62,010 nucleotides of DNA from a virus (taxonomy: Duplodnaviria; Caudoviricetes): IMG/VR virus record IMGVR_UViG_3300044850_000073, positions 1 through 62,010 of that record. One strand, 5' to 3'. Below the pieces are notes generated by a model that made no database searches, had not been told where the DNA came from, and saw nothing but the letters and a program-made list of their open reading frames with translations. The translations under genes and the position numbers were made by a program. Of this stretch, positions 1-62,010 are shown one piece after another. Position 1 is the stretch's first letter; every line of letters starts with the position of its first letter.

Positions 1-10
1 ATCACGAATC

Positions 11-66
11 GTAACATAAGGATTGCTGATGTTACGATTTCGTAGCATCAGGATCGCTGATGTCAA
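11..66. repeat. Two 25-bp palindromic sites (GTAACATCAG-N5-CTGATGTTAC type), 31-bp period
   Basis: gtaacataag-gattg-ctgatgttac (11-35); gtagcatcag-gatcg-ctgatgtcaa (42-66). Confidence 0.85.
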
Positions 67-74
67 CTGTAAAG

Positions 75-96
75 AAAAAAAAGGGGCCGAAGCCCC
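75..96 (-). terminator. Intrinsic terminator of cassette A gene
   Basis: Minus strand GGGGC-TTCG-GCCCC-T8, just after the stop at 105. Confidence 0.9.
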
Positions 97-104
97 CGTT
101 GTGA

Positions 105-395
105 TCAGTCCCACTCGCTTTCGGCCAGCAGGTTCATCTCCCGGATCAGCACGCCGATGGCGCCTTCTCTCAGGAATTCGAACCACTGGGTTTTATAGAC
201 GTATTCCGCCTGCCCCATAAGGCCTGGCAGTTCGCCTAGATCGGCCAGCAGCAGGGCCGGCACGCCGGCCTTGTGGCTGGCGTACAGGGCATCCTGCCGG
301 AGATCCTCGACGGCCCAGAACAGGGCGGTCAGGAAGGACCGATCCTCGTCGCGGGCGTGCTTGAAAGCCCACTGAACGGTGGTTGCGATGGTCAT
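105..395 (-). CDS. Hypothetical protein, cassette A cargo (paralogue of 767..1057)
   Basis: 96 aa with own leader (GGAG) and terminator; about 40% identical by manual alignment to 767..1057 (AGVPxLLL, AEYVxKTQW, REMN). Confidence 0.85.
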   Translation of the reverse strand: MTIATTVQWAFKHARDEDRSFLTALFWAVEDLRQDALYASHKAGVPALLLADLGELPGLMGQAEYVYKTQWFEFLREGAIGVLIREMNLLAESEWD

Positions 396-453
396 TTAGG
401 ATTGCTCCATTGTCGAGGTACGGGCTCGGGGATCTCTCCCCTCGCTTGCCCGT

Positions 454-503
454 ATCCTAGCCACGGCCAGGGGGCGATCGAGGCCATTGTGAAGGATTGC
501 AAC
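454..503 (-). promoter_or_regulatory. Putative early promoter: -10 TAGGAT plus upstream 8-bp direct repeat (HLR1-like)
   Basis: TAGGAT at 459-454; GTTGCAAT-CC-TTCACAAT at 503-486; same spacing in cassette B. Confidence 0.6.
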
Positions 504-553
504 AATGATCTTTGCTTATCAGTGGCCGATGGATCGATAAGTGCAGCTTATGA

Positions 554-599
554 GTGAGTGTGAGCGGGCACACAGCGAAGCAGGGTCGTTCACACTCAC
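554..599. other. Imperfect hairpin with GCGAAGC apex
   Basis: gtgagtgtgagcg...cgttcacactcac; counterpart at 1218-1251. Confidence 0.75.
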
Positions 600-640
600 C
601 AGTTACCTGTTACCCGCCCACCACCCCACTATCACAATTC

Positions 641-727
641 GTAATATAAGGATCGCTGATGTTACAATCTTGTGACATTAGAATCGCTAATGTTACAATC
701 TTGTGACATCAGGATCGCTGATGTCAA
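641..727. repeat. Three 25-bp palindromic sites, 31-bp period
   Basis: Copies at 641-665, 672-696, 703-727. Confidence 0.85.
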
Positions 728-735
728 CTGTAAAG

Positions 736-760
736 AAAAGAAAAGGGGGCCGAAGCCCCC
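736..760 (-). terminator. Intrinsic terminator of cassette B gene
   Basis: Minus strand GGGGGC-TTCG-GCCCCC-TTTTCTTTT. Confidence 0.9.
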
Positions 761-766
761 CGTTGC

Positions 767-1057
767 TCATTCGAAGTCGGTGCCCATTACGGCTTCCCGG
801 TTCATCTCCCTGAGCATCGAGGCGATGTCTTGGAGATTGCGCAGCTCGTGCCATTGCGTCTTCAGGACGTACTCAGCCCGACCCAGGCAGTCTGGCAGGC
901 CTTGCACGTCGATCAGCAGCAGGGGCGGCACTCCGGCATCGAACAGGACCTGATCGAACTCCATTCGGAGATCGTCGATGGCCCAGGCGATGGCGGTGGC
1001 AAAGGACTGCTCCTGGAACCGGGCGGCCTTGAAGGCCGACTTGATGGTGCGGATCAT
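767..1057 (-). CDS. Hypothetical protein, cassette B cargo (paralogue of 105..395)
   Basis: 96 aa; same leader and terminator architecture. Confidence 0.85.
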   Translation of the reverse strand: MIRTIKSAFKAARFQEQSFATAIAWAIDDLRMEFDQVLFDAGVPPLLLIDVQGLPDCLGRAEYVLKTQWHELRNLQDIASMLREMNREAVMGTDFE

Positions 1058-1114
1058 TTGGGATTACTCCGTTGTCGAGGTGCATGCGCGGGTGTCTCTC
1101 CCTCGCATGCCATT

Positions 1115-1164
1115 ATCATAGCGCACCATGGTGGCCGGTGGGGGATTCTGTAACATCCCGTAAC
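1115..1164 (-). promoter_or_regulatory. Putative early promoter: -10 TATGAT plus upstream direct repeat (HLR1-like)
   Basis: TATGAT at 1120-1115; GTTACGGG-AT-GTTACAGA at 1164-1147. Confidence 0.6.
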
Positions 1165-1211
1165 ATCAGGATTGCTGATGTTACAAGTGCGTAACATAAG
1201 CATCGCTTATC
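1160..1211. repeat. Perfect palindromic site plus a partial copy 31 bp on
   Basis: GTAACATCAG-GATTG-CTGATGTTAC (1160-1184); gtaacataag-catcg-cttatc (1191-1211). Confidence 0.85.
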
Positions 1212-1217
1212 GGTGAG

Positions 1218-1251
1218 CGTGAACGGGCACCCACGAAGTGGGTCGTTCACG
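1218..1251. other. Bulged hairpin with C-GAA-G apex
   Basis: cgtgaacg-ggca-cccac-GAA-gtggg-t-cgttcacg. Confidence 0.75.
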
Positions 1252-1563
1252 ATCAAGTGAAGAGCGAAAGATGAATCGTTAATTGGAATAATGTGTACAT
1301 GTAATTCGCAAGAGCTCATTCCATCTCGACTTCAACCGGCCAGGGAAAGTCCACAGCGAACCAAGGAATCAGCAGAGAATGAACGTACCCCCACCCCGCT
1401 CTGGGAAGACCGACTCCCAGCCAACCCCTTCAGAAAATCCCACAAATTTTCCAGGATCGGTCTACAGTGCGACATGTTTGCGGTGTAACAAGTCAGTAGA
1501 TGTAAATATTATGTATCGGAAGTATGTTGGGGATATTATTTCTAGTTGTCGAGAGTGTCGATC

Positions 1564-1629
1564 ACTAGTGCCACCTAGTGCCACCTAGTGACGGCCACCA
1601 CCAGGTAACCTAGGTAGGTACCACCTAGT
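1564..1629. repeat. Short CCACCTAGTG repeats around the first late promoter
   Basis: ccacctagtg at 1571 and 1581, ccacctagt at 1621, actagtg at 1564. Confidence 0.7.
1604..1612 (+). promoter_or_regulatory. Putative late promoter box GGTAACCTA
   Basis: Member of the GGnAnaCTA motif family. Confidence 0.7.
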
Positions 1630-13193: not shown

Positions 13194-13523
13194 GTGGTTC
13201 CTGGAAGGTACGACATTAAAATATACCAGCGAGCTACGTTCAAACAGGAAGTCACGCTGCCAATCGACCTGAGTGGACATCAAGTATTCGCCCAAATATG
13301 GGACAGTAAGCGCAGAAATAAAGTCCTAGATATGGAAGTAGAAATGATAGACGAATCTCTTGGCAAGTTCAACTTAATTGTTGATTGGCCGGAAACTACA
13401 CCACTTAAAAAAGCAGCAGAATGGGACTTGATGGTTGAGTATGCAAACGGAGATCGTGATTATTGGCTTGAAGGTTTAGTGACAATTGATCCTGGATTTA
13501 CCGCACCAGAGGACGCAGACTGA
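13194..13523 (+). CDS. BppU N-terminal-like fibre-anchoring structural protein
   Basis: [25 protein letters not shown] pattern; coupled to fibre gene. Confidence 0.6.
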
Positions 13524-16500
13524 TGCCAGATTTAATTGTTGAAATCGTTACTAACGTTGCGGCTGTTGAATTAGGTGCAACCCCAATTGTTGAGACCGTA
13601 ACTGTCGCAACAGTAGGCCCCCAGGGTCCTCAAGGGGCTACTGGCGTAGCCGGCGAGGCCGGCACTGATGGCGCAACTGGAGTTACTGGAGCTACTGGCC
13701 CGATTGGCGCTACTGGCGTTACTGGAGCAACTGGCCCTCAAGGTGATCCTGGTGGTGCAACAGGCGCTACCGGTGCCACTGGGGCTGGCGTAACTGGTGC
13801 TACTGGTGTCCAAGGCGAAGTTGGGGTAACTGGATCGACAGGCCCTACAGGTCCGCAAGGCGCTGATGCATTATGGAATTTTGTTGGCGAATACAATAAT
13901 GGAGCCGACTATTATCCTGGCGATGTTGTAACATTTGCCGGCGGCACTTATTACAGAATTGGTGAACCCAATCCTGGGTATTACCCGACTGATCCTAATT
14001 ATTGGACTGCCGTTGCATTACCGGGTGCTGTCGGAGCTACTGGTGCTGATGGTATCACTGGTGCAACTGGTGCAACTGGTGACGTCGGTATTACCGGCGC
14101 TACTGGTATCGATGGTCCGACAGGTGTCACGGGAGCTTCTGGCGCCACTGGTGTTACTGGCGCCACTGGTGTTGTCGGCCAAAGCGGTCCAACTGGTCCC
14201 AGCGGATTAATTGGTATTACTGGAGCAACTGGTGTCGTTGGCGTAAGTGGTGCAACTGGTGTTGCTGGCGCCACTGGTGTTACTGGCGCAACTGGCGAGA
14301 CTGGTGCAGTTGGCCCTGAACCTTCTTCTACCACATACACAGTTGATCTGGTCTCAACTGTTAATCCGCAAGCTTCCGGTATTACCAGCACCCAGCTACA
14401 GATCACTGGAACTGCCGGCGAATTTCAGTATACATACGAAACCTTAAGTGGCGTAGAAATTACCGGGACTGATGGTGAGTTTTCTTGTAACGCTGTTAGC
14501 GGGGAATTATTGGCCGACTGGACTATGGTTGTCCAGATTGCTGGCACTTTAACGGGTACTGGTTCTATTACCGGTTACACCAGCGGTAAGGTTTACACAG
14601 TTAAGCAAACCAATGGTTCTACAACTTTCCAATTGGTTGAACTGGTTACATCAAGTGGCCTAACGCCAGTTGTTACTACTCCTGGCAGTGTAACTGGCCT
14701 TACCTTTTATCTTGGATACCGTATAGCGCAGCGTCAGCGCCTGTTGATTAGTGGAACGAACTCAGGCACTGGCAGTATTTCCGGTTACAGCAGCGGAACC
14801 CTTTATAAGATTAAAGACACCACGGTAGTCGGACCTACAAATGGTGTCGTTACATTCGCATTGAATGACAATAACGATGTTGGTATCGCAACTACCGCCG
14901 GAACGACAACAGGCCTAGTCTGTTACATGGTGTATGGTAACTATATAAACGGTGATGTCACTGATGTCCAGATGTTTGGCGACTATGGCGCTGGTGATTT
15001 CTATGATATAAATGACCAAGGCGGGCTGTATCCAGGATTTATATTGTATTTCACGTTTAATGGTGTAAATAATTTAAATCAGATTGATTTAAATCTTAAC
15101 TATATAAACACATCAACTCATACTATTTTACTGCAGATTTACGATTTTGCTGCAGGGCAGTGGATCGAAGTAACCAGATATCAAGGTCTTTCTTCTTGGA
15201 CTCAGTTCCAGCCTGGACTTATTTCCGGAACACCGTATATCAACGGTTTAAATGAAACCTATATCAGGCTTTATCACCAATCCTCTGGTGCTAGCAGTCA
15301 TTATTCTTATATTGACTATGTTGCAGTAGTTGATTCTATCTCCGGTGGACAGGGACCCAGAGGTGCTACTGGCCCTCAGGGTGCAACTGGGGTTACTGGG
15401 GTAACTGGCGCTACGGGCATTGCTGGCATTTCTGCTAGCGGTCGTATCTGGTATTTTGCCCAGGCTGCATCTGACATCAGTGGATATGAAACACTGCAGC
15501 CCGACTCTCCAGATAGTGCCCCTCAGGATGACATGACTGCTGTCACCACTAGCTCTAGTGGTGAAGTCTTGATTAATGAATTTGTCACCGAGGTTGGTGA
15601 TCCTGGTATTAATGAGATACCGACCGGTGAGTATGAGATACGCTTCTGGAGCTATGTCTCCAGTAACGACGGAGATACCAGGCTGGTGTTCCGCGTCTAT
15701 ACGCGTGCAACCAACGGTACTGAAACCCCATTGTTCTATTTGAATTCTCCAGAGATTAATGCAACTACCGCCAGTTATTACAGTCAAATACTGGTAAATA
15801 CTCAGGTAAATCCAATCGATCCAACAGATCGGATTGTAACAAAAGTATACGCAAAAACTACTAGTACTAACAATATTACCGCTCATTTTGTTCATTCTGG
15901 TAATACGCCTAGCTCCTGGAAGACTGCTATTACTCTGGGCTATGTCGGTCCTCAGGGCGCAACTGGTGCCACTGGCGTAGAAGGGCCAACTGGCGCAATT
16001 GGCGTTACGGGCGCGACCGGCCCTCAGGGGTTTACTGGGGAGACTGGTCCTACTGGCGCCACGGGGACACAAGGAGCAACTGGCGCAACTGGCGCAACTG
16101 GCGTAACTGGCTCAACGGGTGTTACTGGTGCTACTGGCGTGAGCGGCGTAGGTGGCGCTACAGGAGCCACTGGTGTTAATGGTGTAACGGGTGCTACTGG
16201 TGTTGTTGGCGTCAGTGGCGCTACGGGTGTCGAAGGACCGACTGGCGTTACCGGTGCAACAGGCGTAGGTGGCGCCACTGGCGCGACTGGTGCTGTTGGC
16301 ATATCTGGCGCTACTGGAGTGATCGGCGTCTCTGGTGCAACTGGCGCCACTGGTGTTGGTATTACCGGTGCCACTGGTATCCAAGGAGCCACAGGGATCC
16401 AGGGCGCGACCGGTGCCACCGGAGTTAATGGTATTACCGGCGCTACTGGCGTCAAGGGAGACGCAGGCGATGCTGGCGCTACTGGTGCAACTGGCGTTGG

Positions 16501-17278
16501 CATTACTGGTGCCACTGGTGTAACTGGAGGTCCTGGGACAACTGGTGCTACTGGTGCCACTGGCGTAACAGGAGCTACTGGAGTAGGAACCCCTGGAAGC
16601 GATGGAGCAACTGGGGCAACCGGCGCGACTGGCGCAACTGGAGTTACTGGAGCCACTGGTGTTGACGGTATCACGGGTGCTACTGGTGTTATTGGTGTTT
16701 CTGGCGCGACTGGTGTTACCGGTGCTACTGGTGTTAATGGTGTAACGGGTGCTACTGGTGTTGTTGGTGTTACTGGGGCAACTGGCGTTGCTGGGGCAAC
16801 TGGCGTAACTGGAGCCACCGGAGTAGGGACCCCTGGAATTGACGGAGCGACAGGCGCGACTGGTGTGGTTGGTGTAACTGGCGCGACTGGTGTAACTGGC
16901 GCGACTGGGGTAATTGGCGTATCTGGCGCGACTGGTGTAACAGGACCCGCTGCACCGAAATCAATTACTATTCTGAATCCAACTACATCAGAAAAGGTTC
17001 CACTTTTTTATACAACAACTGGCTTAACTTTTGCTGCTATTCGGTCCTTAGTAGCCGGCACTTCGCCTAGTGTTACCTTTTCCATAAGGCATGGAAGTGA
17101 CTTCAGCGCCGCCGGAACTGAGGTGGTGAATTCTGGTACTACTGTAACGAGCACTACTACAGGCCTTGCGACAACGACATTTAATAATGCTACTGTTTCC
17201 GCAAATAGCTTTGTTTGGCTGACCACATCAGCTACATCAGGAACCGTTGACCAACTTCACGTGTCATTGTTCTTCTAA
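13523..17278 (+). CDS. Collagen-like fibre protein 1
   Basis: Long Gly-X-Thr tracts (GAT/GVT/GPT) separated by globular domains. Confidence 0.9.
15945..16950 (+). repeat. Degenerate 9-nt coding repeats (ggN gcN acN)
   Basis: Encode about 1 kb of near-continuous Gly-X-Y triplets. Confidence 0.9.
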
Positions 17279-19676: not shown

Positions 19677-22600
19677 GTGATCTTATCTTCTTCTGACATT
19701 TATTCTCTGCTGACCAGGGATCCTATTGTTAGCGCGATTGCTGCTGTTAGGATAGTGAAGGACAGACCCGCGCTGGAGGCGGGTAGTGGTGTTCACATTT
19801 ATATTCAAGAATATCCGAATGTCCAGGAATTTACGGCGACCTGGCCGATGTGGATCGTTGATTATGATGAAGAGCCACTGGATGTTGTTTTAAGTCAACT
19901 CAAAAAACTGGTACCAAATTTCCAGATAATAAAAAATGGTGCGTTAATACATGCAAGTACTACTGATCTTAAGATAGACAAAACAGAAGTTAAGCCTATA
20001 GAGAAGCAACCAGAAATATCGACTGCTGATATAGAAGCAAAATTCAAAGACCTACAGCAATCAATAGAAGACCGAATGCTGCTAGTGGGCCCCGGTCGCC
20101 CCGGCAGAGATGGTGCAAGAGGTATCCCTGGTAAGGATGGGCGCGATGGTGTCGATGGCAAGGATCTACAGGCCACTGATGTTGAACTCGGTGATCTAAA
20201 AGATGTCTTCGTTTCTGATGCCAAAAATCGTCAATTTTTAATGTATGACGGATCATCTTGGATCCCAAGTTTTGTACCGCAAATAATAAAAGCAGGAACA
20301 GGTGGTGGAAATGGTAGCAATATAGACGCCGACATGGTTCGGCAGATATGTGGTATTGACCAAACTGGCGAGCCGATGGGTCACGCCAATAAATTGGATA
20401 GCACGATTACGTTTAATAATATCACTAGAACTTTTACTATAGCTCCTGTAGCGTCAAGTTTTGATGTATGGGTCAGGGGAATTAAATTTACATATACGCA
20501 AGCGCAAAGTATACAGATTCCGGATGTATCTGACCTGTATTATATCTTTTTTGATTCTAATGGAGACATTGGCTATCAGACATCGTTCTTTGTTTGGGAT
20601 AGTCAGGCATTTACTTCTTACATTTACTGGAATGCATCTGAAGGGGTCGCAACATATTTTGGCGATGAGCGACATGGTATTGTTCTTGACTGGCAGACTC
20701 ACGAATACTTGCACAGAACACGCGGAGCATCGCTTGCTAGTGGTTTCGGCATCCAGAATTACACTGTAATTGGTGATGGATCACTTGATACCCATGCTCA
20801 GATTGATATTTTAAATGGCACTTTCTTTGACGAAGATCAGCAGATTGATATTACACATTCCGAAACTCCGACGCCTCAGACATGGGAGCAGCACTTGATT
20901 GGCCCAGCCAAAATACCTGCTTCATATCATACAAATAACGGATGGACTGTTAATACAGCCAATAATTTTCCAATTAAGACCGTTTCCGGTCAGCCTGTTT
21001 ATAACTTAAATACCTCTGGTTCGTGGAGTCTTGTCAATGTAGATGAGAATAAGTATTTCCATGTTTTTATTGTTGCTACGCATAATCTTGGAAATCCTGT
21101 TATTTCTGTATTAGGTCAACGGCAAGATACAAACATCGGCAATGCTCGTAGTTATACCTGGAGCGACCTAGATTTACAAGATTTCCCTTCACTTGAATTC
21201 AGGCCACTTTATCATCTGATTTATCAACATGGTGTGTATGGCAATAGCGTTAATGCTAGATTGCGAGAAGTTGTTGACATCAGATATTCCGCTATTGGTG
21301 CATTTGCATCAGGATTGGTTGGTGAAATTGGCGCGACTGGTGCTACTGGTGTCCAAGGTGACGTAGGCGCTACTGGTCCGAAAGGTGACACTGGTGACAT
21401 TGGAGCTACCGGCCCTCAAGGTGATGCATTTGACTTGAACTATCAAGGTGCATGGAATAGTGCAACCGCTTATGTCGCTTATCAAAGCGTGAGTTATGAT
21501 AACAGTATTTGGATATCTACCAGATCTACTACAAATGAACAACCTGGCACTAATGATGCATGGGTCACTATTGCAGCGCAAGGAGCACAGGGAGCAACTG
21601 GTCCGCAGGGCCCAATTGGCTTTGATGGTGCCACTGGTCCGCAAGGTGTTGGAGAGATTGGAGCAACTGGCGCTGTTGGTCCCGTTGGTGAACAGGGCCC
21701 CCAGGGACCGGCTGGTGCAGATGGACAAGACGGAACTCAGGGGCCTCCTGGTCCCAATATTACATTCCAAGGTTCTGTAGCTAATGTCGCCGATTTACCA
21801 TCTGGTGCCAATGTAAGTGATGCTTATACGGTTATCAACGAAGGATACGCTATTTTTATCTGGAACGGTTCCGCTTGGGTTGATGGCGGTCCTCTTCAAG
21901 GTCCGCAAGGAATACAAGGTCCCGCTGGCCCGCTGGGCCCGCAAGGCCCCGCTGGGGCTACTGGTGCCACAGGTGCTGCAGGCCCCCAAGGCAACGTTGG
22001 CCCCGCTGGAGGAAGCTTCCTGTCTGCCAGACTGTCTGCGACTATAAATTCAAGTGTGACAACATGCACTGTTGCCGCGACACAGGAGTGGCCATTAATA
22101 CCAGCTAACGTCGCTCAGTATCGGATATTAATAGATAATGAAATAATGAATGTCACAGCAACATCTGGGACATATGGCAGTCTGCAATTAACGATAACAA
22201 GAGCACAACTCGGAACTACTGCCGCTACTCATAATAAGAATGGTCTGGTATATCTTCGACAGATTATACCACTGCCTGGTGCAACCGGCATTCAGGGTGC
22301 AACCGGTGTGGGTGTTACCGGCGCTACTGGCCCTCAAGGCGCAACTGGTGCAGGCGTCACAGGCGCTACTGGCCCTCAAGGCGCCACTGGTGTTGGCCTG
22401 TCTACCGGCTTACAGGTACTGCTGGACGACATAAGTCCCGGTTTCGATAGTGCAGAAGTCTCATTTCCATTAACTTATGCAACCACAGCTATACAACCAG
22501 CAGAAGTTCAAAATCTTCTTGTTGTACTAGATGGCAATGTACTTGAACCCATCCAGGACTACACAGTTAGTGGTAGTACTATAACTTTTGCTATAGCACC

Positions 22601-23414
22601 AAGTGGAACATCCGAAGCATTCTTAATAGTCAATTCGTACAGACCAGCACCTGTCGGTATTAGTGACCTTGCTGATGTTTCAGCAAGTGGCTCTGCGATA
22701 CAAGGGCAAGCATTGGTCTGGAATGGCTTTGCGTGGGCTCCTGGGTCTGTAGCTGGTAGCGGTCAGCGTCGGATACTTGATACCCTGGTCTTTCCGCCTG
22801 GTGGCAATCCAAATCCTCCTTTTAACCTCATGATAGGCGGACAACTGTATACACCAGTAAGTGATTTGTACCTTGATGTATATAAAAACAAAGTAAAGCA
22901 AATACCTGGAATCGACTATACTGTTAATTCATATCAGATTATCTTTACTGATCCGATTTCTCCCTCGGAAATTGTGATCATTGCCACTGAAGCAGCTTCT
23001 GGGTCTGGTCTTGGCATGGATCCGGATAAAATAAGACGACACGACTATGTTGCACCATATAGTTACACGGGTACGGCAAACGAAGGAACATTAGAAAGTG
23101 ATCCAGACTGGGTGCTTACCCGTATACAAGTACTGGAGAATGGTGACGCGGTGAACTATTATGCAATTGGCAGTTGGACTAACAGGAGTAGTGCCGATTA
23201 TACCCTGCAGCCATTACTAGCACCACTACCAAAGGCAGCTAGAAGATTCTCGTTTGAAGGTAATTACAGTTATGCCGGTACCAATAATTATGGCAGTGAT
23301 CCAACTTTAGCAAACTGGCAACTAACCAGAATTGAAACATTAGCAAATGGTGAAGCTGTCACGCTCACGGCGACCGATAGTTGGTATAATAGGATTGCCG
23401 CCTCCTATAGCTAA
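19677..23414 (+). CDS. Collagen-like multidomain fibre protein 2
   Basis: Several Gly-X-Y tracts, two DYTV fibre-type repeats, duplicated ~57-aa C-terminal module. Confidence 0.85.
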
Positions 23415-31681: not shown

Positions 31682-32695
31682 TCACTTCTCGTCGTCATAG
31701 CGCCAGAACTGTTCTCTAGGTTCCCTTGGTTCTGGGACATCGCTCGGCCAGGAAGGCAGTCTAAACATCAGTCTGAATCTAGCCGGATCCAGGCCCTCTT
31801 CCCGGAATGCTTGTTCTATCTTAAGAATTCTAGGCGTCAGTATGTCTATATTATCAGGATCATCTCTAAGCAGATTACAATACATCATATGGAGTTCATC
31901 ATAATCATCGATCAATCTTCTGTGCTTTGCCTTAAGAACCAACTCATCCTTTCTGTCTTGTTCCAAAACAGCCTCTGCTTTGTCGTAATTCAAGCCATCG
32001 TTATATAGCGTATAAACGTTTTGATATTTCTTGCTTTGAGGTGATCCAATTCCAACGATACTTTGCAAGGTCTTTGATGAATTGTCTTTTGACCAAAAAG
32101 TGGAGTGCTCGATGCCGTTTTTCAGGACAGAGAAGAAATCTGCATAAGCATGTGGCTTTAACTTTAAAGCCATGATATGAGCGTCGATTGATCTAAGAAG
32201 CTGAGAACTTAGTCGATTTATTTTGCTATAATTTGCTGGCCTGAAAGAATTCCAAGCATCAGTAGCCTGCTGGAAATAGTCATTCTCCTTTGGCTTTAGC
32301 TCTTGCTTGCTTGACTTGTCTGTTCTAATATCAGTTTCTTGTTCAGCATTAGCCTTATCTAATAAATTCTTTATTTCCGCCCTAGCGTTATAGCTTACGT
32401 CTATCATTCTTCTGAGCACAGGTATCGGATCAACCAAGACTATTTTATCTTCTGTTCCTTCAATAAGTCCGTATTCTTTCAATTCTTTAATACATCTTAT
32501 TCTGGTTGATCTATGTATTCCTATCATTTTATCTAGGACTGATTTGTCAATCGGGCCAAATCTTACTTGATTAGCTAATACAATCCATAGCAATTTGCTA
32601 TTGGGGTGGAGATCTTCGCAGAGCAGAAGTTCTAGTGGAGCCTTAGCAAACGTATGTATATCCCAGCTTGACTTCTTTGAGACGGAGACCTTCAT
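31682..32695 (-). CDS. Putative replication initiator (N-terminal winged HTH)
   Basis: LHPNSKLLWIVL..MIGIHRSTRIRCIKELKEYGLI; upstream of helicase; next to iteron array. Confidence 0.7.
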   Translation of the reverse strand: MKVSVSKKSSWDIHTFAKAPLELLLCEDLHPNSKLLWIVLANQVRFGPIDKSVLDKMIGIHRSTRIRCIKELKEYGLIEGTEDKIVLVDPIPVLRRMIDVSYNARAEIKNLLDKANAEQETDIRTDKSSKQELKPKENDYFQQATDAWNSFRPANYSKINRLSSQLLRSIDAHIMALKLKPHAYADFFSVLKNGIEHSTFWSKDNSSKTLQSIVGIGSPQSKKYQNVYTLYNDGLNYDKAEAVLEQDRKDELVLKAKHRRLIDDYDELHMMYCNLLRDDPDNIDILTPRILKIEQAFREEGLDPARFRLMFRLPSWPSDVPEPREPREQFWRYDDEK

Positions 32696-32799
32696 AAACC
32701 ATGTGGAGCTGAGCACAGGATACGCGATACTCGGGACGTGTCCAAAAATACCATAATTGCGTCGCAAGCATTAAATGATCTTTAATCTTTGGGATCTCG

Positions 32800-32994
32800 C
32801 GTTGCAAAGCGCAACGCCAGGCGTTGTAAAATACAACACATACGTTGCACGACGCAACGTTTTACGTTGCAAAATGCGCGTTATCAAGAAATGTTACGAA
32901 AACCGCGTCGCGTTATGCAACATTTTCTGTTGCACGATGCAACGCAAACGTTGCAGGACGCAACGCAATGGCAAAAACGTTGCAGGATGCAACG
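32800..32994. repeat. Palindromic iteron array, putative replication origin
   Basis: CGTTGC-N5-GCAACG type copies at 32800, 32822, 32843, 32865 (half), 32928, 32949, 32978; A-rich tract follows. Confidence 0.8.
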
Positions 32995-33079
32995 CTTATA
33001 AAGAGTTCTAAGAAAAAGAAAAAAGAAATAGAAGAAGTAAGAAGAGCAGCCAACGCTTCGCGTTCGGTAAGCTGATGAC

Positions 33080-51868: not shown

Positions 51869-52387
51869 ATGGTCGAAGTCACCTTTACTCCATCGCAACG
51901 CGTCAAGGCGATACTAGAAGGCACTAGAAGGCAGAAGACCAACGAGGCTAGCTCTTTAAGGGGGCGGAACAACGCACCATCTCACGGGCAGGAAGCGCTG
52001 AATATGCACTTGCTGGGCGCTGCAGCCGAGATGGCTGTAGCTTCCTATCTTGATCTTGAGCAATATGTTTTTGCTGACAAAAATCCCGTACGAGGCTCCA
52101 GTGATCTTCCTGGTTATATCGACGTGAAATGTCGCTCCAAACATTGCTACGATTTATTGATTCAACTAGATGATGATCCATCTAAGAAATTTGTTTTAGT
52201 TACTATCCAAGACCGTAGGATTCGTATCCATGGATGGACTTGCGGACACGATGCGATGCAGGTAAACTGGATACGTGAATTAGTGCCTGGTCGACCTGCT
52301 TATGTCGTCCCCAGGGAATTCCTTAAACCTATCCAGGAGCTAAAATGTCTAGTGGATGCTGCATTGAACGAGAAGACATTTGGCTGA
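51869..52387 (+). CDS. PD-(D/E)XK-like nuclease-fold protein
   Basis: GAAAEMAVA..SD..IDVK. Confidence 0.6.
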   Translation: MVEVTFTPSQRVKAILEGTRRQKTNEASSLRGRNNAPSHGQEALNMHLLGAAAEMAVASYLDLEQYVFADKNPVRGSSDLPGYIDVKCRSKHCYDLLIQLDDDPSKKFVLVTIQDRRIRIHGWTCGHDAMQVNWIRELVPGRPAYVVPREFLKPIQELKCLVDAALNEKTFG

Positions 52388-52539
52388 CCTGGGAAGACCA
52401 GGATGGAGAAGAATTTGCAATGCTTAATTTCTCAAAAGAAATACTAGATACTCTTGGATGGCAAGAAGGAGACGATTTGATCTTTCTTGACCAAGAAGAT
52501 GGTTCAGTCCTGATTAAAAAAGCAGACGAAAACCAGTGA
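52345..52539 (+). CDS. AbrB/SpoVT-like DNA-binding protein
   Basis: EILDTLGWQEGDDL..DGSVLIKK. Confidence 0.7.
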   Translation: MSSGCCIEREDIWLTWEDQDGEEFAMLNFSKEILDTLGWQEGDDLIFLDQEDGSVLIKKADENQ

Positions 52540-56444: not shown

Positions 56445-56819
56445 ATGCCCCGCCGTATCAAGCCACACGCCAGCCGCCGCCGCCTGCAAGGGCAGCGCCT
56501 CCTGAGTTTTGCATCGACCTACAACATCGACAGTCATGGCGCTATCGGTGTCACAGCAGCCAGAAGGTTCGCTGCCGACAACAAGATTCACTGCCCAGCA
56601 GTAATCCGCGTTCGCCGAAACACCAACACGATTGACAGCTTTTTCCTGGCTGAAAAAGGAATGTTTGGTCTGGCTTATGTTGAATTCAACTGGATGCTAT
56701 TTCCGTGTTTAAATCAATTGGTCGAAAAAATTGGTCCAAGAGAGTTGTTCACTGACTTGGACCAATATGACTGGGCTTTTGAGGAAGAATCCTACAAGGT
56801 TGAATACGCTTTCATTTAA
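56445..56819 (+). CDS. Hypothetical protein
   Basis: ATG 56445; Arg-rich N-terminus. Confidence 0.6.
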   Translation: MPRRIKPHASRRRLQGQRLLSFASTYNIDSHGAIGVTAARRFAADNKIHCPAVIRVRRNTNTIDSFFLAEKGMFGLAYVEFNWMLFPCLNQLVEKIGPRELFTDLDQYDWAFEEESYKVEYAFI

Positions 56820-57214
56820 GCTGCCCCGGTCAGGCGATTACTGAAGTTGAATTTATAGCCCTCGATGGTGTCATCCTGACAGGGCTCAACATACGTCCTA
56901 TGGCAGCATATCTTGCTGATTGACGTATTATCCATGCCAAATTCTTTGGCTAGAGAACCTTGCTTTTCTCCTAGTTTGTACCTCAAGCGAATGTCGCAGA
57001 TTTGACGGTCGCTAAGAAAACCAGCCCTGCGACCACGCTTGATCGGATCCTGGGACAGCGGCGGCCGGCGCCGAACGCGCCTAATGACACGCCCTGGCGT
57101 TGTCACGCAGACATTGGTGATCCGTGCGATGCTGTCATAGTCGTACCCTTGGCACCTAAGATCCCAGATCCGGTCCTCCTTGGGAATAGATACGTTCCTT
57201 CTGCGCCTGGCCAT
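56816..57214 (-). CDS. Double HTH DNA-binding protein
   Basis: GYDYDSIARITNV and QGSLAKEFGMDNTSISKI. Confidence 0.7.
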   Translation of the reverse strand: MARRRRNVSIPKEDRIWDLRCQGYDYDSIARITNVCVTTPGRVIRRVRRRPPLSQDPIKRGRRAGFLSDRQICDIRLRYKLGEKQGSLAKEFGMDNTSISKICCHRTYVEPCQDDTIEGYKFNFSNRLTGAA

Positions 57215-61544: not shown

Positions 61545-61858
61545 CTGAAAACCACCCAATCACTCCACCGCCGGAGCTGATTGCTAAATGGGCAAGCAGC
61601 ATGTGTGGTTACTACAAAGCCGCCCGCTGGGGAGCAGACCAGGAGCTGGAGGCGTGCTGTAAGTGGCTGAGCAGCCGCAGCTCTTTGACCGAGAAACTCC
61701 GCGATGTCCGCCGCCCGAAGCCGCCGAGCTTGAAGGAGCAGGCGCTACAGGCGTTGTACCGCTTTGACGACACCCAAGGACACGAGGGTTTGACGCCTGA
61801 GCAAATCGCCGATGACTTCGTGCTCATCCGCCGCGCCCTGGAGCAACTCGATGACTGA
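61541..61858 (+). CDS. Hypothetical protein (paralogue of 59760..60059)
   Basis: HPITPPPEL..WGADQELEACC..PPSLKEQAL. Confidence 0.75.
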   Translation: MTENHPITPPPELIAKWASSMCGYYKAARWGADQELEACCKWLSSRSSLTEKLRDVRRPKPPSLKEQALQALYRFDDTQGHEGLTPEQIADDFVLIRRALEQLDD

Positions 61859-62010
61859 CCCCACCCCCACCGACTGGCGAGCGCTGTGCGCCCGCATGGC
61901 TGACGAGCTGGATCATTATCGCCAGCTCTTGATGGACGATTGCAGCGAAGCTCATGCGTTGGCGACTGAAGCCCGTGCCTTGCTTGCCCAGCCCGAGCCG
62001 CAGGGGCCGA
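61851..62010 (+). CDS. Hypothetical protein, truncated by window end
   Basis: MTDPTPTDWRALCARMADEL...ARALLAQPEPQGP, open to the end. Confidence 0.65.
   Translation, partial: MTDPTPTDWRALCARMADELDHYRQLLMDDCSEAHALATEARALLAQPEPQGP

Follow-up and report, generated by a model that had tools for sequence, protein, structure and literature searches.

The left end of IMGVR_UViG_3300044850_000073 carries two small, related genes set among rows of evenly phased palindromes, and the question is whether these palindromes serve the exchange of genes or their control. The window analysed here is the whole record, a linear metagenomic fragment of 62,010 nucleotides (~77% complete), and its source is a siphovirus akin to Synechococcus phages S-CBS2 and S-CRES. 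An earlier note had described positions 1–1260 as a platform of shuffleable gene cassettes with sites resembling those of tyrosine recombinases, and had named operator arrays as an alternative. With the balance about level, the region can be read as a locus of variable accessory genes in an S-CBS2-like cyanosiphovirus. For the palindromes, the best-fitting explanation was that alternative: phased regulator-binding arrays controlling moron-like accessory cassettes, to which a probability of roughly one half is given.

Anatomy of the locus

The locus consists of two units on the minus strand, bracketed by palindrome rows. It lies on the strand opposite to the structural genes, where the two main gene blocks of the phage meet. 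The two units of the earlier note were found again, but with a size of ~662 bp rather than ~630 bp, and each was self-contained as described, with its own −10 box, leader, gene and terminator.

Both genes reported for the units, one in each, were present. Gene A (105–395, minus strand) encodes an acidic (pI 4.65), all-helical orphan of 96 aa, and gene B (767–1057, minus strand) its 96-aa paralog with a pI of 4.77. The two proteins match at 40 of 83 residues (48%, E 9e-26) in the local alignment and at 45% in the global one; they are thus divergent as had been proposed, but less so than the earlier figure of ~40%. GC3 was 0.80–0.82 in the cassettes, compared to 0.39 in terL and 0.61 in the capsid gene. 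No Pfam family scored above cut-off for the 96-aa proteins (Mtf2 reached 19 bits, cut-off 27), PHROGs gave no match, and a word-indexed search returned the self-match alone. The profile search recovered 14 small orphans together with one 2,729-aa protein containing weak repeats. The family has a confidently predicted fold (pLDDT 93), and a structure search had been suggested as a check; it produced no fold match, with a best E of 4.7 and no fold named in Foldseek PDB, a best Z of 6.3 covering a helical hairpin only in VIA wide, a best E of 2.4 in BFVD and no match usable by its features in the ESM Atlas. The pI fell between 4.6 and 5.0 in 11 of 13 family members, and such acidic proteins are poor candidates for the site binder. 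Candidate DNA binders encoded elsewhere by the phage include a double-HTH protein of 132 aa at 56816–57214, an AbrB/MazE-like protein of 64 aa at 52345–52539 and a zinc-ribbon protein of 69 aa at 1379–1588. Since a family that is duplicated and fast-evolving has the usual profile of counter-defence or host takeover, the 96-aa proteins are reasonable candidates for screening.

The palindromic sites are confined to this locus. When GTAACATCAGGATYGCTGATGTTAC was searched with up to three mismatches, six matches were obtained, corresponding to sites 11, 42, 641, 703 and 1160 (the last on both strands), compared to none in 100 shuffles, and none was found past position 1184 of the 62,010. Site 672 has four mismatches. 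The half-site CTGATGTTAC, at up to one mismatch, was found 16 times in the window, nine of them in 11–1200, compared to an expectation of 3.8. Array 1 (11–66) contains two 25-bp sites, at 11–35 and 42–66; array 2 (641–727) contains three, at 641, 672 and 703; and array 3 (1160–1215) comprises a perfect site at 1160–1184 and a degenerate one at 1191–1215. A further degenerate site at 532–556 retained only the inner dyad ATAAG-N5-CTTAT. None of these elements is assigned to a strand, and the start-to-start spacing within arrays is 31 bp. The sites listed previously, including the degenerate one near 536, were thereby borne out, as was the difference in copy number of two against three between arrays 1 and 2.

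Thirteen copies from two phages could be aligned. On the gene-sense strand, all 13 have the asymmetric centre C(A/G)AT(C/G/T) in a single orientation, and the inner AT.AG-N5-CT.AT is invariant. Position 8/18 of the site is symmetric in seven copies and asymmetric in six, a pattern consistent with half-site recognition that would allow C or A there. By its sequence, the 25-bp site appears to combine an inner 15-bp dyad, AT(C/A)AG-N5-CT(G/T)AT, with outer GT(A/T)AC units. The junctions of array 2 also carry a plus-strand extended −10, TGTTACAAT, with hexamers at 663–668 and 694–699, and a plus-strand promoter-like element within the arrays, GTGACA-16-TACAAT with TG, matched at 10 of 12 positions. 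Putative plus-strand start sites would lie at ~675 and ~706.

Gene A is followed by an intrinsic terminator (72–97, minus strand) of the form GGGGGC-UUCG-GCCCC (97–82) and a U run, and gene B by one with a UUCG loop (738–761, minus strand; hairpin at 761–744), in agreement with the UUCG terminator previously assigned to each unit. Leader A (396–453, minus strand) has a 5′-proximal stem-loop at 420–453 and a GGAG ribosome-binding site. Leader B (1058–1110, minus strand) begins with a stem-loop at 1083–1110, whose stem is retained through compensating changes relative to unit A. The leaders, already described as conserved, are 78% identical. The terminator-plus-site flank is 88% identical between units compared to 64% for the coding sequence, and so the flanks are indeed far more alike than the genes.

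Promoter A has the −10 box TAGGAT (454–459, minus strand) and no −35 hexamer, with a start site placed by inference at ~447; promoter B has TATGAT (1115–1120, minus strand), with a putative start site at ~1108. The −10 is conserved in both units and in L001, and a block upstream of it is common to the cassette promoters. A sigma-70 scan returned no minus-strand promoter at these boxes, and the −35 is absent. The promoter proposed for each unit is reduced to this conserved −10. A promoter-proximal dyad, CATTG-N13-CAATG (485–507, minus strand), includes in promoter A an HLR1-like box, GTTGCAAT-cc-TTCACAAT (486–503), that matches at 14 of 16 positions and lies at about −56 to −39 from the inferred start. 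A weaker pair in unit B, GTTACGGG-at-GTTACAGA (1148–1165, minus strand), scored 12/16 by hand, below the cut-off of 13/16 used in the HLR1 scan, and is placed as in unit A, at −57 to −40 from the inferred start.

The hairpin noted in each unit was also confirmed, as quasi-palindromic element A (554–600) and element B (1213–1255), neither assigned to a strand. Covariation in this hairpin family is weak, with a double change in one of 12 pairs and a consensus energy of −5.6 kcal/mol. A conserved block, GAATTGTGATAGTGGGGTGGTGGGCGGGTAAC (603–640, minus strand), comes after the downstream array both here and in two other genomes, G001 and G002, and possibly includes an extended −10 promoter, TGTGATAGT.

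The left contig end lies 10 bp past array 1, within a conserved block, GA(A/T)T(T/C)GTGAT. Logan contigs left positions 1–48 uncovered, and none crossed position 1. Both ends of the contig look like assembly breaks at repeats, so further units may well be missing, as had been suspected for the upstream side. By analogy with G001, array 1 would be expected to give way to the AGTGGGG block and then to hairpins and small genes in an array. Repeat rows were found at or near the ends of the record, of a 1,082-nt contig and of a 10.8-kb contig; that such rows fragment metagenomic assemblies is a practical warning. The concern that the duplication itself was an assembly artefact was not upheld, the duplication being real by a check at the level of contigs rather than raw reads.

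Content of the locus in related phages

In a complete 85.7-kb relative (G001; 85,756 positions), the locus was found at the same place with other content. Instead of two paralogs it contains one ortholog, 63% identical to the gene A product, and an unrelated 112-aa ORF. Neck and HNH genes come first, then a hairpin, an array, the conserved −10, the ortholog, a terminator, another array and the conserved block; a small-gene array punctuated by hairpins ends the series. The hairpin family punctuates such arrays in nine copies in this genome and in five in G002. Sites with up to three mismatches occur at three places, all within 13750–14787, and a 26-nt stretch upstream of the −10, including the HLR1-like box of promoter A, is identical to that of the window. 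The 112-aa ORF sits between terminator and array and is therefore not site-to-site cargo. Three further relatives (G002–G004) have a 164-aa fused form. The search for relatives with different cargo was thus successful, and the content of the locus is not a fixed pair of genes. Homology blocks between the window and G001 start and stop near arrays, with no breakpoint placed exactly at a site; it is from this overall pattern that we infer recombination at the arrays.

The two components of the site occur separately. Inner dyads lacking GTAAC arms were found in G002–G004 and in an unrelated fragment, G005, and the outer unit alone forms 10-bp-phased direct repeats in G005 (five overlapping matches compared to none in the reversed control). 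Directly past the last dyad, G002 and G003 have a 15/16 match to HLR1. The inner 15-bp dyad and the outer GTTAC unit are therefore separable motifs.

Outside the window, full 25-bp sites were found in contigs equivalent to G001 only, with a partial pair in G006 (L039), and comparative power is low because the site family is rare. A 16-nt core pattern returned 119 loci, mostly chance matches. At least two site-like 25-mers were present in only five of the 129 loci examined, two of which (L025 and L082) were set aside as chance by appearance. Among 20 metagenome loci and two viral loci, the junction pattern was seen in G001-equivalents only. The syntenic region of S-CBS2 has no such sites, and the locus gave no blastn or tblastn match in the phage collection. 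Related loci were sought with a four-row protein alignment, the 13-row alignment being too divergent. Literature listings on S-CRES1 and on cyanosiphovirus palindromes showed no paper on such arrays.

Proposed operator arrays and competing explanations

The two units may be old tandem paralogs of one moron-like cassette, composed of an activator-type promoter (an HLR1-like box near −47 and a −10, but no −35), a 5′ stem-loop, an acidic helical protein of 96 aa and a terminator. We infer that the 25-bp palindromes would be bound by protein as duplex DNA rather than recombined. A period of 31 bp corresponds to three helical turns, so that all copies of a given motif type would face the same side of the helix, favouring cooperative binding. 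Since promoter-like elements of either strand coincide in part with the rows, these are most likely operator arrays; they would act as switches or insulators for the transcription of the cassettes and, in relatives, of the small-gene array that follows. The same rows, ~60–90 bp long, recur at both ends of each cassette and in this way also provide the homology needed for exchange and unequal crossing-over. The phage encodes a RecE-like exonuclease, a Sak-like annealing protein, RusA and SSB, and the first three could be the agents of such crossing-over. Exchange via the rows would account for the tandem duplication, for the contrast between 88% in the flank and 64% in the gene, and for the varying content in relatives.

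Some features fit less easily with operators. In unit A and G001, the cassette promoter has its arrays 95–200 bp upstream, a distance that simple occlusion would not span. The conserved asymmetric centre would be unnecessary for a simple symmetric dimer. Compensation between the arms would suit a hairpin or cruciform as well.

A specific form of the operator explanation is that the GTTAC(A) units are HLR1-type sites read by the host regulator RpaB, so that the cassettes would be gated by light or redox state while a second factor reads the inner dyad. This is possible but unlikely. The excerpted texts of PMC6525291 and 10.1101/443713 give an HLR1 consensus and an activating position of −66 to −45, and the former also reports HLR1 sites in cyanophage genomes. 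The resemblance lies in octamers akin to (G/T)TTACA(T/A)(T/A) that are paired at a 10-bp distance and lie around −56 to −39 in promoters lacking a −35, a position at which RpaB activates if the inferred start sites hold. The box scored 14/16 both in promoter A and in G001, and the 15/16 matches in G002 and G003 compare with our own estimate of ~0.01 expected per 8-kb locus. The five 10-bp-phased units of G005 point the same way, and a motif set common to fragments without detectable protein similarity to the window would suit a host factor. However, over the whole window 31 matches reached at least 13/16 compared to 23 in shuffles, and two reached 14/16 where ~1.2 were estimated by chance, so the boxes in the window are not significant by score alone. 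Unit B reached only 12/16. The array junctions score 14–15/16, but with a spacer of 3 nt where HLR1 canonically has 2 nt, and RpaB binds direct repeats whereas the palindrome arms are inverted.

Alternatively, the palindromes could act as nucleic-acid structure rather than as duplex binding sites, either as RNA hairpins for processing, stabilization or antitermination in read-through transcripts or as cruciforms or single-stranded DNA hairpins. Arm cells were complementary in 81.5% of cases, compared to a shuffle value of 76.0% (4 of 500 shuffles scored as high), and eight cells had changed on both sides compared to 3.4 in shuffles (reached by 1 of 500). One G001 copy has other outer letters and still forms a dyad. 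Upstream of gene B, a 243-nt region in which the 1160 site forms a 10-bp stem folds far more stably than its shuffles (z = −5.2), and the neighbouring hairpin family indicates that structured repeats are in use in the region. The corresponding region upstream of gene A, however, is not unusually stable (z = −0.9), and position 8/18 is unpaired in six of 13 copies by A–G or C–U mismatches, which are not wobble pairs. Conservation extends to the sequence of the loop or centre, beyond what pairing alone would require. Arrays 1 and 2 come after strong terminators and array 3 is upstream of a promoter, which makes their transcription in the gene sense doubtful. Rfam gave no family match at the sites and one match of E 0.63 elsewhere in the region. 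A structural role is considered improbable.

It was also considered whether the phased repeats could be origin iterons or terminase (pac) sites, bound by an initiator or a small terminase, given that array 3 adjoins an AT-rich segment (1260–1330) and hairpins, that the locus falls where the two main gene blocks adjoin and that cumulative GC skew has its minimum at the start of the record. The skew, however, tracks gene direction, and the start of the record is an assembly break. A triple palindrome, ACGTTGC-N5-GCAACGT, at 32796–32997 lies beside a wHTH gene and a DnaB-like helicase gene, the usual setting of an origin, while the terminase genes are 38 kb away, with terS at 38.8 kb. The sites bracket single small genes and overlap promoter-like elements, and the related motifs of G002–G005 are in promoter-type contexts. 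An origin or packaging function is decidedly improbable.

The least favoured explanation is that the palindromes are tyrosine-recombinase core sites used by host Xer-type enzymes, with cassettes mobile in the manner of the pdif modules known from Acinetobacter plasmids or of integron cassettes. Its geometry is suggestive, with 9-bp arms around a 7-bp centre in one orientation in all 13 copies; cassette content varies between relatives; and the flanks are more similar than the genes. One arm variant, TTATGTTA, is presumably similar to the XerD arm of E. coli dif. In the excerpted text of PMC3025954, dif prediction failed in five of five cyanobacterial genomes, and with cyanobacterial dif sites undefined, mimicry of a host site would still be conceivable. 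As the earlier note had stated, no site-specific recombinase is visible in the window: PF00589 and PF00239 gave no matches in six frames of the window, of complete G001 or of G002, and PF00589 was found in 14 of 14 control genomes. The same six-frame search gave no integrase, and hence no sign of lysogeny. In same-orientation tandem rows of two to four at 31 bp, recombination would remove sites together with the genes that separate them. Known core sites are single and stand at module borders; Xer/pdif sites in particular are 28 bp long (11-6-11), occur singly where modules meet and alternate in orientation, unlike the one orientation and the tandem rows found here. Integron cassettes are promoterless, with a single attC of ~57–141 bp, and require an adjacent IntI-type tyrosine recombinase, which was absent from the window (G000), G001 and G002, whereas these cassettes have a conserved −10 and a terminator and their 25-bp sites stand in rows of two to four. 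The extra ORF of G001 is flanked by a terminator and an array, not by sites. GTAACATNAGNNNNNCTNATGTTAC was found at six places in 185,579 species genomes, none of them cyanobacterial, compared to an estimated ~9 by chance, and inner and outer motifs that occur apart are not expected of a single core site. The integron-like proposal was therefore not sustained, and site-specific recombination is highly improbable.

Comparison with known systems and significance

For operator arrays, the tripartite operators OR and OL of lambda, with 17-bp dyad sites at ~23–24 bp, are a natural comparison. In both systems, two or three similar dyads stand in a row at a constant distance, promoter elements of the two strands lie among them, and such rows are found again at one or more further places, separated by some hundreds of bp. 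The present sites differ in being 25-bp composites with a 31-bp period and a conserved asymmetric centre, and there is no CI/Cro-like gene beside them and, with no integrase found, no sign of lysogeny.

Morons, as reportedly described by Juhala et al. (2000) and by Hendrix, are promoter–gene–terminator inserts of deviating composition between genes of lambdoid phages. They are defined in prophages and expressed from the repressed prophage. The cassettes likewise have their own −10, gene and intrinsic terminator, lie opposite to their neighbours and have a GC3 of 0.80 compared to 0.39–0.61 in core genes. They differ in that lysogeny genes are lacking and that the cassettes stand in tandem as paralogs, with operator-like rows on either side.

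The PeSL cassettes of T4-type phages, invoked in the earlier note, are apt as an analogy, in that shuffling there would be mediated by repeated regulatory DNA. According to PMC2839356 (Arbiol et al. 2010), orphan genes of a hyperplastic region, non-essential ones, have repeated promoter-plus-stem-loop units on their flanks, and homologous recombination between the repeats was proposed, without a dedicated recombinase. The likeness is in small repeated regulatory units that flank orphan genes, with content varying among close relatives. Here, however, phased rows of 25-bp palindromes and a separate hairpin family take the place of the fusion between sigma-70 promoter and terminator, no −35 is present in the cassette promoter and the record has two units only. 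The phage is a cyanosiphovirus rather than a T4-type myovirus.

The CGRE1 site of PlmA (PMM1637) is described in PMC6191309 as a 21–22-nt dyad that starts between −55 and −57, has GTTG...CAAC or GTTA...TAAC as its flanks and contains a GTGA(T)CAC-like core. The promoter A dyad, ATTG-N13-CAAT, shares the 4-13-4 geometry given there for the low-light type, and it is likewise a dyad of ~21 bp that starts ~55–59 nt upstream of the putative start site in a small-gene promoter lacking a −35. Membership was rejected on the ATTG/CAAT flanks and on a centre without a GTGA(T)CAC-like core. The 25-bp array sites are of another geometry altogether.

A composite switch is also conceivable, in which RpaB or a relative would bind GTTAC(A) while another dimeric factor binds the inner dyad on the opposite helix face; this is rather improbable. 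If it were true, acidic accessory proteins, possibly serving counter-defence or takeover, would be gated by the light state of the host, and the use of the same two-motif grammar in fragments without detectable protein similarity would represent a so far undescribed cyanophage regulon.

To our knowledge, how cyanosiphoviruses control their early and accessory genes is almost entirely uncharted. The two-motif grammar, a 15-bp dyad and HLR1-like units in three-turn phasing, supplies concrete probes for naming the regulator. Potentially, these probes could also be used to test whether accessory-gene expression in phages of picocyanobacteria is linked to the light sensing of the host.

Organization of the palindromic sites

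The 25-bp palindromes reported in the earlier note were found to be real and restricted to positions 11-1215 of the window. Matches to the consensus with no more than three mismatches were present at 11, 42, 641, 703 and 1160, compared to none in 100 shuffles, and a site at 672 together with degenerate copies at 1191 and 532 completed the set. Within the three rows (11-66, 641-727 and 1160-1215) the period was 31 bp. The half-site matched 16 times in the window, compared to 3.8 expected, and nine of these matches fell at 11-1200. Across 13 aligned site copies, the inner AT.AG-N5-CT.AT did not vary, and all centres, C(A/G)AT(C/G/T), had the same orientation. Position 8/18 was C-G in four copies, compensated in three and unpaired in six, a mix that suits tolerant half-site reading better than pairing, some compensation notwithstanding.

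On sequence comparison, the 25-bp site is a composite of an inner 15-bp dyad and an outer unit. The dyad, lacking the GTAAC arms, was found in three remoter relatives (G002-G004) and in G005, and the outer unit ATGTTAC(A/G)A was found alone in G005 as 10-bp-phased direct repeats (five overlapping matches versus none for the reversed control). Canonical outer-unit pairs were present in G002 and G003, and a weaker pair in unit B of the window. In translated comparison, G005, a viral fragment of 4.3 kb, showed no similarity to the window, L001, L002 or L160. Besides a dense set of the same inner dyads, its intergenic region of ~450 bp (L163, 2050-2480) contains at least five copies of ATGTTAC(A/G)AA in 10-bp phase, a palindrome that is perfect over 26 bp (AACAATAGTACATTTGTACTATTGTT) and a repeated AGCCGGGTCTT motif.

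In the window rows, successive GT(A/T)AC pentamers were 20, 11, 20 and 11 bp apart, which places them on one helix face; the inner dyads are offset from them by roughly half a helical turn. A plus-strand extended -10 (TGTTACAAT) is located inside the rows with GTGACA 16 nt upstream (10/12), and the minus-strand promoter candidates TATATT and TGTGATAGT were read by eye at the row's end. Judged from these features, the rows look like operator-promoter complexes, loosely comparable to the tripartite operators of lambda.

The compensation counts in the site arms and the folding of the stretch upstream of gene B still lend some support to an action of the sites as RNA or as a cruciform. A replication origin or pac is less likely, since the terminase genes are far from the arrays and a different triple palindrome adjoins winged-helix and helicase genes. 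This unrelated family, three copies of ACGTTGC-N5-GCAACGT in a divergent region (32796-32997), may itself serve as a replication origin or as a set of operators. Its neighbours are the DnaB-like helicase gene and, on the minus strand at 31682-32767, the gene of a 361-aa protein that weakly matches a winged helix. That host Xer enzymes act on the 25-bp sites is conceivable but unlikely: cyanobacterial dif sites are undefined according to the available text of PMC3025954, but the exact-arm pattern gave six genome hits, none cyanobacterial, about the number estimated for chance. The integron-like or tyrosine-recombinase reading proposed earlier was not upheld, as no tyrosine or serine recombinase domain was detected by six-frame scans of the window, the complete relative G001 and G002, nor among the scanned ORFs, the supposed core sites form tandem rows of one orientation around cassettes with their own promoters and terminators, and an extra ORF in G001 does not have sites on both sides.

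Anatomy of the units and their layout in related phages

Both units were read on the gene-sense (minus) strand, with start sites placed from the -10 boxes only. Each begins with a hairpin and then a site row or its remnant. Next come a box of HLR1-like or dyad type, spanning about -57 to -39, and a -10 box that lacks a -35 and reads TAGGAT or TATGAT. A 5' stem-loop, its stem retained between units through compensating changes, then precedes a GGAG ribosome-binding site, the 96-aa gene (A, 105-395; B, 767-1057), a terminator and the next site row. A 38-nt G-rich block separates array 2 from hairpin A. The UUCG-loop terminators, conserved leaders and two hairpins were as first described, and the flanks were indeed more alike than the genes, the terminator-plus-site flank being 88% identical between units versus 64% for the coding sequence.

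Quasi-palindromic elements of ~40 nt, with arms of GTGA(G/T)C hexamers and an inner stem differing among phages, occur in the window at 554-600 and 1213-1255, in G001 as nine copies (L001, 4919-7553) and in G002 as five (L002, 4431-6695). In the latter two phages they separate nearly all small genes of G+C-rich arrays. Covariation in this family was weak, and the elements may be protein sites or signals for RNA processing or stability.

G001, an 85,756-bp genome with direct terminal repeats that is rated complete, has the locus in the same place, adjoining neck, HNH and tail-assembly genes. There a hairpin comes first, then three to four sites, 26 nt shared exactly with the window promoter block, a -10, an ortholog (63% identical) and a terminator. 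After these come a 112-aa ORF that is unrelated and has a terminator to itself, two sites, a G-rich block and nine copies of a 44-nt hairpin element among small G+C-rich genes, the first of which belongs to the Kyano_Gp96 family. In G002-G004 the version is remoter: the homologous domain makes up the C-terminal portion of a 164-aa protein, after whose gene come inner dyads alone, a 15/16 HLR1 match, a G-rich block and a hairpin-punctuated array. From these layouts, the locus appears conserved in place and grammar and variable in content. Relatives thus differ from the window rather than repeating the same two genes in fixed order; the observations of the earlier note were confirmed, and of its interpretation the variable cassettes were retained. 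In the same samples as the window contigs, a relative, seen in contigs at 133-188, 376-419 and 462-520, was 4-8 times deeper in coverage; its gene A homolog and promoter block matched at 90-95%, with different adjoining sequence, so more variants of the locus exist there.

Duplication, the 96-aa proteins and the ends of the record

The duplication is genuine and not an assembly artefact: contigs of three runs, one of which may be the record's source and all of which may be one campaign, gave both units with zero differences. They break only at shared repeat borders (49, 416-445, 710-739 and 1217-1252). Upstream and downstream rows were 72-83% alike, both within and between phages. Gene A was nearer to the G001 gene (75% nt) than to gene B (64%), and a B-like N-terminus was also present in another protein, P0011. 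The sequences would fit either an old duplication or acquisition of gene B from another phage. Unequal crossing-over between similar rows would give the tandem arrangement, and the phage encodes recombination functions of its own that could carry out the exchange. We infer here the same logic as in the PeSL cassettes of T4-type phages (available text of PMC2839356), although the repeat differs.

Proteins A and B, previously estimated at about 40% identity, were measured at 48% over 83 residues. They form an orphan family with 14 hits among 1.84 billion representatives (E <1e-10 for three), acidic in 11 of 13 members (pI 4.6-5.0). The AlphaFold model was confident (pLDDT 93) and all-helical, and structure searches with it in PDB, BFVD and Atlas returned nothing past a helical hairpin. 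Crude dN/dS was high (A versus B, 0.85; A versus G001, 0.48), values inflated by the codon bias of these genes (GC3 0.80). This profile is in keeping with phage accessory proteins, and the proteins are poor candidates for binders of the sites.

The record is a single 62,010-base contig of the linear class, rated 77% complete, and the runs containing its sequence are sediment and freshwater metagenomes. It encodes a siphovirus gene set: tape measure, major head, portal, terminase, two sigma factors, ribonucleotide reductase, primase, DnaB-like helicase, RecE-like exonuclease and ligase. Identity of the large terminase to its counterparts in Synechococcus phages S-CRES1-3 and S-CBS2 is 69-72%. 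The plus strand carries nearly every gene; both 96-aa genes are minus-strand genes within a region of 56% G+C, versus ~44% in the rest. Two tail-fibre-like proteins of ~1,250 aa (13523-17278 and 19677-23414) have long collagen-like Gly-X-Y tracts, which make up the dominant share of the genome's repeats.

At the right end, the last plus-strand ORF (61851-62010, 53 codons) lacks a stop and aligns to residues 2-43 of a 183-aa G001 protein. At the left end, the conserved block GA(A/T)T(T/C)GTGAT|AGTGGGG is severed after its tenth base (1-10). A 1,082-nt metagenome contig of the G001-type locus terminates in both arrays, and a 10.8-kb contig (G006) stops ~37 bases past its pair of sites. Both window ends are therefore most likely assembly breaks. 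Additional units may lie to the left, and by the completeness estimate ~18 kb may be absent, probably including, by analogy with G001, a small-gene array.

Candidate regulators of the locus

According to the available text of two sources (PMC6525291; 10.1101/443713), the HLR1 consensus for RpaB is (G/T)TTACA(T/A)(T/A)-NN-repeat, with activation from a motif 66 to 45 nt upstream. The phased outer-unit repeats fit this consensus. The window scan gave 31 hits at ≥13/16 versus 23 in shuffles, and two at ≥14/16 versus ~1.2 by our own estimate; on score alone, the window boxes are not significant. The HLR1 reading is instead suggested by the right position, by retention of the box in G001 and by clear HLR1-type repeats beside the same inner dyads in G002, G003 and G005. 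For the dyad of promoter A, a CGRE1 (PlmA) identity was rejected: geometry and position resemble the description in the available text of PMC6191309, but flanks and centre differ.

Three phage proteins are candidate binders. The first, of 132 aa (56816-57214), has two weak helix-turn-helix matches, is 75% identical in G001, has 65 relatives and is absent from S-CBS2. The others are an AbrB/MazE-like protein (52345-52539) and a zinc-ribbon-like protein with two CxxC pairs (1379-1588, plus strand; homolog at L001 3334-3516, minus strand), whose gene separates the cassette locus from the structural genes in the window phage and in G001. Near this gene is a conserved GGGGTGGGGGTAC block (1388-1400). 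Three direct repeats of GTGCCACCTAGT (1568-1629, spacing 10 and 40 bp) stand directly upstream of the first structural gene (1636) and may be the control site of a late promoter.

The main yield is a concrete site grammar for this locus, along with a candidate connection to RpaB, a regulator of the host.
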